Below, one piece after another: positions 29,612 to 30,382 of a stretch of DNA of 32,000 nucleotides. This DNA comes from an uncultured Clostridia bacterium. GTDB taxonomy: Bacteria; Bacillota; Clostridia; TANB77; CAG-508. The position numbers were made by a program, and so were the translations under genes. The notes below the pieces were generated by a model. The model made no database searches. It saw only the letters and a program-made list of their open reading frames with translations, and was not told the DNA's origin. The stretch's first letter is position 1, and the number at the start of each line of letters is the position of its first letter. The stretch is taken from contig CALXFF010000012.1 in the NCBI GenBank assembly GCA_944387525.1, positions 11,576 to 43,575 of the forward strand, read 5' to 3'.

Positions 29612-29948
29612 AGTATTTTATTAGTCCTCCCAATATTTTTCCTATTTCATATATTAATTCAATTGATACTTTAAATTTCTTTTCGTCTATATATTTATTT
29701 TTTAACATTATTCTTAATAAAATCCTTTGATAACTTATTTTTGTATCAATTATATTTAAATAGTATAATCTTTGATATTTATCTATTTTTTCTATATATA
29801 ATATGTTTTCTAGTGTTTGATACATTGAATTTTTGAATTCATTTCCAATATTGAATTTTTCAATTCTTGGTAACTTTAATATTATTTCCAGCATATATTG
29901 TATGTATCTTTCATATTTTGGAATTAGTTGTAAGCTATTTTCTTTCAT
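29589..29948 (-). CDS. avd: Avd-like accessory variability determinant (four-helix-bundle, 23S rRNA-IVP-like)
   Basis: 119 aa, basic and predicted all-helical. Pattern KFNIGNEFKNSMYQTLENI...RILLRIMLKNKYIDEKKF...IYEIGKILGGLIKY. Lies immediately upstream of, and overlapping, the RT gene. Confidence 0.75.
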   Translation of the reverse strand: MKENSLQLIPKYERYIQYMLEIILKLPRIEKFNIGNEFKNSMYQTLENILYIEKIDKYQRLYYLNIIDTKISYQRILLRIMLKNKYIDEKKFKVSIELIYEIGKILGGLIKYYAKNNKK

Positions 29949-30382
29949 TTTTCTTTTTCTCTTTCTTGTGCTAGTTTCTTTAAATTTTCAACGTATTCTT
30001 TTGTACTTTTCATTCTATTTTTTTTATACCAACATTTTTCACAATTAATATTATTGGCTTTTTCGTCTACATATCTTCCCTCTAATCTAAATATTTCTTC
30101 ATATTTTTGATTTTCTTTTTTGTAATCATATATTATATATCCATACCCTGAATTTATTAATTTTGGTATTGCTACTTCTATTCCTCTAACTGGTATTCCA
30201 CATTTACAAATTTTTTCTTTGAAACATACTGGTATATATCCTAATATGTTATGCAGTAATACCGCATCTTTTCCTATTGCACAATAAAATATTCCATTTC
30301 TCACTAATACTATTTTTCCTTTGTTTTCTTCTTGTAATTTCTTTACTATTTCATAATATTTTGACATCTTGACCTCCTTCAA
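29945..30382 (-). CDS. small MutS-domain-I-like DGR accessory protein
   Basis: 145 aa. RBS gaaggagg. ATGA overlap with avd. YYEIVKKLQEENKGKIVLVRNGIFYCAIGKDAVLLHNILGYIP...CGIPVRGIEVAIPKLINSGYGYIIYD aligns by eye with the MutS mismatch-binding domain I (YLxxKxxxPDxILLFRxGDFYExFxxDAxxxxxxLxI...xGxPxxxxxxYxxKLxxxGxxV). The GDFYE motif is replaced by GIFYC. Confidence 0.55.
   Translation of the reverse strand: MKEVKMSKYYEIVKKLQEENKGKIVLVRNGIFYCAIGKDAVLLHNILGYIPVCFKEKICKCGIPVRGIEVAIPKLINSGYGYIIYDYKKENQKYEEIFRLEGRYVDEKANNINCEKCWYKKNRMKSTKEYVENLKKLAQEREKEK

Follow-up and report, generated by a model that had tools for sequence, protein, structure and literature searches.

The DGR cassette in the window (the whole 32,000-nt stretch of DNA that was analysed) encodes Msl, a stand-alone MutS mismatch-binding domain that is made together with the accessory protein Avd and the reverse transcriptase (RT). 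We infer, with a probability of about 0.4, that Msl binds the mismatched heteroduplex formed between cDNA and the variable repeat (VR) without signalling to MutL, and that it would in this way shield new mutations from host mismatch repair (MMR). The gene belongs to the Msl class of accessory genes, which received its name from Wu et al. 2017 (NAR; PMC5758913; Architecture D), the assignment being made by the published description of that class. The class has been known since 2017, and the present case is a correct re-identification rather than a discovery. An initial annotation of this DNA had correctly mentioned such a class as listed in large DGR surveys: the published set includes Legionella and Bacteroides (Wu et al. 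2017, PMC5758913), and the Bacteroides DGRs Bfr, Bth and Bun bear Msl (bioRxiv 2024.11.15.621889). Experiments on any Msl were not found in the literature.

All features described here are encoded on the minus strand. The cassette is a complete DGR comprising a target gene with its VR, msl, avd, the RT gene and a template repeat (TR) with adenine-specific differences, as the initial annotation had supposed when it placed msl in a DGR operon. Both marker families were recovered: avd (bAvd-like accessory variability determinant, 29589..29948) matched Pfam bAvd (PF22296, E 2.1e-16), and the RT (28601..29611, 336 aa) matched RVT_1 (E 1e-18). The avd start overlaps the msl stop (ATGA), and the last 23 nt of avd are shared with the start of the RT gene. 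TR (28413..28540; direct repeat D1) is 76% identical to VR (30591..30718), which was delimited by repeat comparison with TR and frame analysis. The two differ at 35 of 133 positions, most of them TR adenines (30 of the 35: 23 A>G, 4 A>T and 3 A>C), and no second VR matching TR was found elsewhere in the 32,000-nt window. The target gene was called as an open frame of 448 aa (30654..32000), and relatives have homologous target genes upstream of msl. Its frame breaks within VR, which runs beyond the stop of the called ORF, and the ancestral frame continues to a TAG at 30581-30583; the N-terminus carries a weak pilin-like motif (N_methyl E 0.013, below the cut-off). Directly 3' of TR is a structured RNA, Rfam RT-14 (RF02921, 28264..28417), matched over its full length (99.8 bits against a gathering score of 48.1, E 2e-14). 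A 99-aa ORF (27485..27784) with a borderline match to Pfam DUF6809 (E 1.2e-5, 26.5 bits versus a cut-off of 27) may also be part of the cassette: it follows the mini-SSB gene described below in some relatives and has tblastn matches in 9 related loci. A Pfam scan covering six ORFs of the cassette gave no HRDC match.

The msl frame had been annotated as a 145-aa ORF translationally coupled to avd. That frame is present (29945..30382), but it opens at a TTG, and the start is most likely the ATG at 30367, giving a protein of 140 aa (29945..30367), because the sequence AGGAGG lies 5 nt upstream of this ATG and homologues begin with MSKYYE or MKFYE. The ATGA overlap with avd is borne out by the plus strand, where positions 29945-29948 read tcat, so that the msl stop occupies 29947-29945 and the avd ATG 29948-29946. 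Msl is basic (pI 9.2; family mean 8.6 ± 0.9), and its intact relatives are approximately 130-175 aa long.

Judged from profile and structural-model searches, the resemblance of Msl to MutS is beyond chance. Msl matched Pfam MutS_I (PF01624) with an E value of 4.5e-9 and 37 bits (cut-off 20.6), in an alignment covering residues 8-93 and profile positions 7-96 of 113. In a Foldseek search of the PDB with its AlphaFold (AF2) model (pLDDT 89.5), all of the top 50 matches were MutS/MSH chains. The best was Taq MutS (1nne_B/1ewq_B; E 5.4e-6, probability 1.00), with a TMq of 0.61 and an rmsd of 2.6 Å over 99 columns against 1nne_B. The likeness to MutS domain I, originally drawn by eye, was therefore significant in both the profile search and the fold search. 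Direct comparisons with PDB chain sequences were marginal (phmmer E 0.43; family profile E 0.84 to Taq MutS), so significance rests on the Pfam profile together with the fold search. Landmarks that had been picked out by eye also align with their Taq MutS equivalents, GIFYC of Msl with GDFYE and cGIP...kLinsGY with aGIP...rLLkmGF.

Msl shares the fold of domain I with MutS1 proteins (Taq 1ewq/1nne, E. coli MutS), along with the motifs G-x-F-[YF], [AG]-I-G-K-D-A and G-[IF]-P. Family conservation was assessed from about 100 representatives. The Phe with which MutS wedges a mismatched base (the wedge Phe) is invariant: Phe27 of Msl aligns with the Phe of Taq GDFYE and is kept in 100/100 family sequences. 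In contrast to MutS1, the Glu of Phe-X-Glu is missing from every one of the 100 sequences examined; Cys29 occupies its position in Msl, and the family shows I (30), V (25), C (20), N (9), T (9) and others including Y, Q and D. The pattern behind the change from GDFYE to GIFYC noted in the initial annotation, Phe retained and Glu lost, is accordingly family-wide. K55 is conserved in 99% of the family sequences. The Foldseek matches included 1wb9, 1wbd and 1wbb, which are the E38 mutant structures of Lebbink et al. 2006.

MutS domains other than MutS_I were not detected in Msl by the Pfam scan, and NCBIfam MutS models matched residues 10-89 only (18-20 bits versus cut-offs of 480-642). Lengths did not exceed 269 aa in the best 150 of 667 Msl family representatives, and there is hence no full MutS among those 150. 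In MutS, the Glu and the connector, lever, clamp and ATPase serve mismatch discrimination, ATP-driven DNA release and MutL signalling. Unlike MutS1, Msl has neither the connector and lever nor the clamp and ABC ATPase (domains II-V), so that ATPase and clamp functions and signalling to MutL are missing from it.

A further difference from MutS1 is a conserved Cys pair in the beta-hairpin of Msl (C48 and C54, each conserved in 99% of about 100 family sequences). A second pair, C109 and C112, was jointly present in 74/100 sequences and jointly absent in 20/100, and in most of the latter the C-terminus is unrelated, truncated or chimeric. All four cysteines (Cx5C ... CxxC) are invariant across Msl subgroups that are just 35-38% identical, and, because of this conservation, they probably constitute a zinc site through which the C-terminal extension would be fastened to the domain's beta-hairpin. 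The CxxC region gave a weak profile match to a zinc-ribbon ribosomal protein (E 0.98). The extension that bears the CxxC is a feature of Msl that is missing from Taq MutS domain I as aligned. The initial annotation had described a Cys-rich tail at the protein end. The CxxC exists, but not at the C-terminus, since approximately 28 residues follow C112, mostly as a predicted helix (122-139) in the model.

Downstream of TR, the cassette encodes an 83-aa OB-fold protein (27900..28151), hereafter mini-SSB, whose position is conserved in this DGR lineage. Searches with tblastn found it at the equivalent position, with 44-75% identity, in 23 of the retrieved related loci, and as weaker remnants in 5 decayed loci. 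Pfam SSB (PF00436) was matched by 15/17 members (best E 2.6e-8), the window copy scoring below the cut-off (E 0.016). The AF2 model (pLDDT 95.4) matched bacterial SSBs in Foldseek, with the highest TMq (0.89, rmsd 1.2 Å) for 1z9f. MutS_I, bAvd and RVT_1 genes were located upstream in 3/3 mini-SSB homologue contexts sampled. Bacterial SSBs have the same OB fold, but also a flexible C-terminal tail with an acidic, partner-recruiting tip, whereas mini-SSB has no such tail and ends at residue 83, right after the last strand of the barrel.

Msl was associated with DGRs throughout the genomes surveyed. All 24 Msl loci in GTDB species representatives, and all Msl-bearing metagenome contigs sampled, were DGR cassettes or decayed remnants of them, and homologues outside DGR contexts were not found in either set. 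The significant MutS_I match and this confinement to DGR loci in the sets surveyed both agree with the initial annotation. The gene order target-msl-avd-RT was conserved in 16/24 GTDB loci, the remaining 8 being partial or decayed, and RTs located downstream of msl-avd in relatives were 66-93% identical. Msl relatives were not found in IMG/VR viral contigs, INPHARED phage genomes and PLSDB plasmids, so a phage- or plasmid-borne origin of Msl is unsupported. Four distant phage RT relatives (33-36% identity) had no detectable Msl or mini-SSB.

The gap between VR and msl contains a long imperfect hairpin (30450..30508; inverted repeat I1), made up of a 13-bp outer stem, an A.A mismatch and a 4-bp inner stem. 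We rejected the hairpin as a canonical intrinsic terminator (0 terminator-like sites in the scan); promoter-like sites in the same scan occurred at the count expected from shuffled sequence. Just upstream of the msl RBS, a 19-nt unit (CCAATAAATAAAAGAGGTAC on the minus strand) occurs three times in tandem (30397..30454; family D3), in a copy number that varies among close relatives.

Shielding from MMR would proceed as follows. Adenine-mutagenised cDNA would anneal to VR, creating a heteroduplex with up to ~30 mismatches, and Msl would bind the distorted sites. As Msl would be unable to recruit MutL, it could block or out-compete host MutS, and the changes carried by the cDNA would then last until the following round of replication, escaping repair that would restore the parental VR. 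For its part, mini-SSB, which has no tail, may coat or deliver the single-stranded cDNA. Several points count against this explanation. Strong DNA binding is not expected of MutS domain I in isolation, and tens of mismatches per heteroduplex would call for many Msl copies or cooperative binding. According to work cited in PMC5758913, the Bordetella phage DGR does not require mutS. Msl is also clearly insufficient for high activity, because in Bacteroides two constitutively active DGRs are without Msl and were contrasted with three Msl-bearing elements (bioRxiv 2024.11.15.621889). The suggestion in the initial annotation that a mismatch-domain protein might shield or process the heteroduplex is nevertheless consistent with published effects of host mutS on retrohoming: in a Bacteroides DGR without Msl, deletion of host mutS increased VR mutagenesis 5- to 10-fold, and repair by host MutS was all-or-nothing (bioRxiv 2024.11.15.621889).

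Msl might instead act during cDNA synthesis, which we regard as unlikely, as a cofactor that binds the mismatched TR-RNA:cDNA hybrid or the primer-template junction in the RT-Avd-RNA particle and that aids RT extension after misincorporation opposite adenine, or stabilises the RNP. Translational coupling of msl to avd and RT, which implies their co-production, would suit such a role, as would the basic character that Msl has in common with Avd and RT, and the retention of the wedge Phe with loss of Glu-based mismatch discrimination. However, MutS domain I is known as a binder of B-DNA heteroduplexes, not of RNA:DNA, and in vitro adenine mutagenesis by the Bordetella system needs no protein beyond RT and Avd. 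Also in favour of this role, three RTs carry a MutS_I-like C-terminal extension, joining the domain to the polymerase itself (Wu et al., PMC5758913). A natural in-frame Msl-Avd fusion (P0015) points in the same direction, but it is weak evidence because it belongs to a decayed cassette with a truncated Avd and no RT, and we set it aside as Rosetta-stone evidence. Another proposal, to which we give little credence, is that Msl recognises the target site by binding the VR-msl hairpin or cruciform, for example at its conserved A.A mismatch, and marks VR for integration. In 7 related sequences of the window's subgroup, the hairpin is conserved with compensatory changes at 7/17 pairs, and homing of the Bordetella phage DGR requires hairpins downstream of VR (PMC3240598). 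Characterised DGR hairpins have 7-10-bp GC stems and GRNA loops and lie 4-34 bp from VR (PMC3240598), unlike the present one, which is ~80 nt from the VR end. Recognition of the A.A mismatch was downgraded because in L043/L045, another lineage with Msl, the stem is perfect over 20 bp and contains no mismatch. Msl type does follow the type of the upstream non-coding region rather than RT similarity, but physical adjacency explains this covariation trivially.

We see an equally slim chance that Msl redirects host repair, marking the heteroduplex and biasing strand choice in favour of the cDNA strand, with replacement of the parental one. Its mismatch-domain anatomy and the all-or-nothing action of host MutS on DGR intermediates (bioRxiv 2024.11.15.621889) would accord with this; yet MutS_I is the sole domain detected in the 140-aa protein, which has no connector, ATPase or other domain to contact MutL, a nuclease or the clamp, and the Pfam scan found no nuclease gene in the cassette. 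It is highly improbable that Msl is a dispensable passenger or decaying relic without a role in diversification. Many relatives do lie in degraded cassettes (deletions, IS insertions, chimeric ORFs), and Msl diverges much faster than RT (in L019, identity to the window copies is 89% for RT and 37% for Msl). However, dN/dS was 0.11-0.44, below 0.45 in all pairs and indicative of purifying selection, motifs are invariant between the divergent subgroups noted above, and the position and coupling of Msl are kept in intact cassettes.

Extending the shielding explanation, Msl and the tail-less mini-SSB could tentatively be viewed as a DGR-encoded cDNA-integration module of chromosomal Clostridial DGRs, an idea that we consider possible but doubtful. 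In such a module, mini-SSB would protect and deliver the single-stranded cDNA, and a zinc-stapled Msl would sit on adenine-derived mismatches and hide them from MutS/MutL. The module would bear on two questions, the route of DGR cDNA into the chromosome and the means by which tens of mismatches avoid being repaired. If true, it would be nature's equivalent of the annealase and dominant-negative MutL that engineers needed to add before DGRs would work in E. coli, and Msl would be the first dedicated element-encoded anti-mismatch-repair protein working by domain mimicry. The compact cassette (Msl, Avd, RT, TR, structured RNA and mini-SSB) would allow the integration step to be tested in a defined system and could supply parts for DGR-based directed evolution, and the signature of a kept Phe, a lost Glu and four cysteines (Cys4) points to concrete mutants.

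Among known systems, the published MSL class has in common with the window Msl its small size, homology to the MutS recognition domain, in-cassette location, the presence of avd and the lack of HRDC. Published members are 112-283 aa long and were described as neutral (pI 7.2 ± 1.7; PMC5758913), whereas the window Msl is basic and occurs in a lineage of uncultured Clostridia. The window cassette also adds mini-SSB and the RT-14 RNA, which are not listed as accessory elements in the Msl papers cited. The DGR accessory proteins Avd, HRDC and CH1 are, like Msl, small nucleic-acid-binding proteins encoded beside the RT, but their folds differ from that of Msl; Avd, which is basic, is also part of the window cassette. 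To our knowledge, a role has been demonstrated only for Avd among DGR accessory proteins, as an RT cofactor. A possible functional analogue is the evasion of MMR engineered for DGR reconstitution and recombineering. Reconstitutions of DGRs in E. coli add a dominant-negative MutL (E32K) and a single-stranded DNA-annealing protein (CspRecT), the latter type of protein being essential in DGRec, and the proposed outcome would be the same, namely that heteroduplexes escape MutS/MutL. The components are unrelated, and Msl would act at the mismatch rather than on MutL. Engineered evasion, like the window cassette, also supplies a second protein that handles single-stranded DNA, although mini-SSB is an OB-fold binder and CspRecT a RecT-type annealase.

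The MutS-like accessory gene msl and its protein Msl belong to a diversity-generating retroelement (DGR) on the minus strand, in the order target gene with variable repeat (VR), msl, avd, reverse transcriptase (RT) and template repeat (TR). Gapless alignment of the TR (28413-28540) with the VR (30591-30718) gave 35 differences over 133 nt, and TR adenines account for 30 of these (23 A>G, 4 A>T and 3 A>C). Together with the Pfam assignments of the genes neighbouring msl (bAvd and RVT_1), this makes the cassette a bona fide DGR. The initial annotation described a 145-aa open reading frame (29945-30382, minus strand) coupled to avd. 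The frame and the ATGA overlap of the msl stop with the avd start (plus-strand 29945-29948, tcat) both hold, and avd in turn overlaps the start of the RT gene by 23 nt. However, the Msl product is likely 140 aa rather than 145 aa, given an AGGAGG that precedes the ATG at 30367 by 5 nt (minus-strand sequence TTGAAGGAGGTCAAGATG) and homologues that start at the corresponding methionine. The DGR adjoins gyrA (regions 16118-24400 and 24883-27351). Beyond gyrA, genes for a tyrosine integrase (16118-17824), a TraG/TrwB-type coupling protein (19187-20839) and a DnaB_2 replication protein (22756-23733) suggest that a mobile element is integrated close by.

Msl corresponds to MutS domain I; it keeps the phenylalanine wedge and is devoid of the glutamate and of all the machinery that couples mismatch binding to ATP and MutL. 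The similarity initially recognized by eye was borne out by Pfam (MutS_I, PF01624, residues 8-93, E 4.5e-9, 37 bits, gathering score 20.6) and by structure. The AlphaFold2 model (30 homologues, mean pLDDT 89.5, pTM 0.76) retrieved 70 PDB matches at E ≤ 0.001 with Foldseek, and the top 50, with alignments spanning about 100 columns, were all MutS, MSH2, MSH3 or MSH6 chains. Best were Taq MutS chains 1nne_B and 1ewq_B (E 5.4e-6, probability 1.00, query-normalised TM 0.61, rmsd 2.6 Å). Plain sequence searches of PDB chains were marginal (E 0.43 and 0.84), and their alignment agrees with the Foldseek and Pfam placement: GIFYCAIGKDA, with the GIFYC noted in the initial annotation, aligns to GDFYECFGEDA, and CGIP...KLINSGY to AGIP...RLLKMGF.

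Among 1.84 billion cluster representatives, a profile search recovered 667 Msl-family proteins at E ≤ 1e-3, of which 197 reached E ≤ 1e-10. Lengths in the best 150 of the 667 were 56-269 aa, so no full-length MutS was among them. In an alignment of Msl with 99 representatives (120-200 aa), Phe27, which corresponds to the MutS wedge, was present in 100/100 sequences. Position 29, equivalent to the MutS glutamate, was occupied by I, V, C, N, T, Y, Q or D, with Glu in none (0/100). Other conserved positions were C48, C54 and K55 (99% each), G25 (98%), A35 (96%), G32 (92%) and P59 (91%). C109 and C112 were both present in 74 sequences and both absent in 20; in most of these 20 the C-terminus is unrelated, being truncated or forming a chimera with fragments of RT, Avd or mini-SSB. 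Even subgroups only 35-38% identical to the window Msl keep L11, G25, F27, IGKDA, L38, C48, C54, K55, G57, P59, C109 and C112. In the model, the Cx5C pair (C48, C54) sits in a beta-hairpin (residues 47-59), and the CxxC pair (C109, C112) in a C-terminal extension followed by two helices. From this conservation we infer a putative Cys4 zinc site that would staple the extension to the domain. The protein is also basic (pI 9.2; family 8.6 ± 0.9).

Msl evolves much faster than the RT; at one related locus (L019), RT, Avd and Msl are 89%, 57% and 37% identical to those of the window. Moreover, loci ranked by Msl identity (35-98%) do not follow the ranking by RT identity (66-93%; L010-L030 and others), a discordance that suggests module shuffling or fast Msl evolution. 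A single MAG (BRZ_NR bin75) carries two DGRs, L009 and L019, with RTs 93% and 89% and Msl 98% and 37% identical to those of the window.

Scanning one genome per GTDB species yielded 24 Msl loci. All 24 come from uncultured Clostridia or Clostridium MAGs, and L009 is nearest to the window (Msl 98% identical). In 16 of the 24, avd and RT lie directly downstream of msl; two loci are partial cassettes and six are remnants that keep a target homologue, VR-end-like sequence or an IS insertion. For six further representatives, metagenome contigs held some intact target-msl-avd-RT cassettes, others being deletion or insertion derivatives. All these loci are DGR cassettes, partial cassettes, or remnants and derivatives. 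Searches of IMG/VR, INPHARED phages and PLSDB plasmids recovered no Msl relatives, and across the GTDB, metagenome, viral and plasmid searches homologues were thus not widespread outside DGRs. Decayed cassettes were numerous (L001/L015, L005, L006, L012, L024 and L040; proteins P0015, P0085, P0102, P0128 and P0137). They include an insertion after msl with a phage-integrase-type gene and an IS91-type (Y2) transposase gene, an in-frame Msl-Avd fusion with the RT absent, RT genes interrupted by insertions of 2-3.4 kb (in one case with a second, weak RT match), and chimeric Msl-RT, Msl-Avd and Msl-miniSSB frames.

The TR is followed immediately on its 3' side by a full-length match to the Rfam RT-14 RNA (RF02921, 28264-28417, minus strand, 99.8 bits, E 2e-14), which may provide structure or priming within the DGR RNA. 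It is followed by an 83-aa SSB-fold protein, mini-SSB (27900-28151, minus strand), a candidate new DGR accessory gene that is absent from the accessory classes described in the cited DGR literature. Matches to it (tblastn, 44-75% identity) occupy the equivalent position in 23 of the fetched related loci, from both Msl subgroups, with weaker remnants in five decayed loci. The gene is conserved across this DGR lineage, where it accompanies msl-avd-RT. Pfam SSB was matched by 15 of 17 members (best E 2.6e-8), and the model (pLDDT 95.4) superposes on bacterial SSB OB folds (e.g., 1z9f, TMq 0.89, rmsd 1.2 Å). The usual C-terminal tail of bacterial SSB is missing. A homology search found 1193 homologues; in three of three contexts sampled the gene was downstream of bAvd-RVT_1, with a full MutS_I gene upstream in two, while the third (L049) starts at a contig end and has only an unannotated 57-aa fragment at the MutS_I position. 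A 99-aa frame (27485-27784, minus strand), borderline for DUF6809 (26.5 bits, cut-off 27), follows mini-SSB in nine related loci and may be a further cassette member.

The 448-aa target frame stops at a TAG within the VR, whereas in relatives the segment from RV.RGG to the terminal RLTLY(I/V)K is in one frame. An extra C within the conserved RGG codons (CGA GGT C GGT, 30678-30689) breaks this frame and is matched in the TR (28500-28511); the ancestral frame runs on to a TAG at 30581-30583. An extra C occurs at exactly the same point in two other loci with unrelated VRs, L040-42 (AGA GGG C GGT; L040:2250-2540) and L016 (CGT GGT C GGC; L016:5433-5692), the latter an otherwise intact cassette with its TR. 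The extra C yields a CGG codon, which is almost unused, at 9 of 5506 codons in the window's genes and none in gyrA. Possibly the TR holds a null allele that has been copied into the VR; alternatively, this may be a site of +1 frameshifting at a hungry codon. Seven of the nine CGG codons of the window's larger ORFs fall in one 455-aa ORF (3050-4417, plus strand; no Pfam match), whose codon usage is therefore atypical. The target N-terminus (31890-32000, minus strand) has a hydrophobic segment weakly matching the prepilin N-methylation motif (N_methyl, E 0.013, below cut-off), and the window closes with the three bases of the target ATG.

Three 19-nt tandem units (30397-30454) lie directly upstream of the msl ribosome-binding site. 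Arrays of 18-22-nt units ending in GGTAC recur in relatives (L009:1-90, L010:1-105, L036:1-170, L046:2540-2600), and a second subgroup has a different unit, CCACTAACGTGGCG. Unit sequence and copy number differ between near-identical loci (3 in the window versus at least 4 in L009, 4 in L033 versus at least 8 in L036, 4 in L046 versus 2 in L048), and several assemblies break within the array, which may be a variable-number regulatory element.

The initial annotation proposed that the protein could shield or process the heteroduplex. On established MutS biochemistry, a domain I without the glutamate or ATP/MutL coupling could contact distorted duplex but could not license repair. We tentatively favour shielding (probability roughly 0.4): Msl would occupy mismatches in the cDNA:VR heteroduplex, which would thereby be hidden from host MutS/MutL. 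Besides the domain anatomy, this reading draws on a Bacteroides DGR in which deletion of host mutS raised VR mutagenesis 5- to 10-fold, repair being all-or-nothing (bioRxiv 2024.11.15.621889). It also draws on E. coli DGR implementations, which add dominant-negative MutL and a ssDNA-annealing protein and in which no mutagenesis was seen without the latter. However, tight DNA binding is not expected of an isolated domain I, and the many mismatches of each event would need cover. Msl-bearing Bacteroides elements are, moreover, not the constitutively active ones (bioRxiv 2024.11.15.621889).

That Msl acts in cDNA synthesis or in the RNP is unlikely, if the best placed of the alternatives to shielding; RTs with MutS_I-like C-terminal extensions were noted by Wu et al. 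(PMC5758913). Recognition by Msl of the hairpin adjoining the VR seems improbable. This imperfect 59-nt hairpin between VR and msl (30450-30508; 13-bp outer stem, A.A mismatch, 4-bp inner stem) is conserved within the subgroup of the window, where 7 of 17 pairs show compensatory changes (among 7 sequences, about 5 of them independent), but another Msl lineage (L043) has a perfect 20-bp stem from which the A.A mismatch is absent. The window's hairpin is also unlike those of characterised DGRs, which are short and GC-rich with GRNA loops. We give similarly little weight to Msl redirecting host repair, and hardly any to its being without function; pairwise dN/dS of 0.11-0.44 indicates purifying selection on msl.

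As stated in the initial annotation, an MSL (MutS-like) class exists, one of four DGR accessory classes defined by Wu et al. 2017 (PMC5758913), who reported it in 16 of 372 DGRs (112-283 aa, avd always alongside, HRDC never), including that of Legionella. Msl is also encoded by three pilus-diversifying Bacteroides DGRs (bioRxiv 2024.11.15.621889), and our literature search found no papers testing its function. The initial finding is therefore a correct re-identification of a known, uncharacterised class; the observation is confirmed, and its interpretation is supported where it concerns identity. With a mini-SSB and an RT-14 RNA added, this compact cassette makes the function of the class testable. 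In MutS, mismatch binding is coupled to ATP and MutL, whereas Msl has the domain without that coupling machinery.
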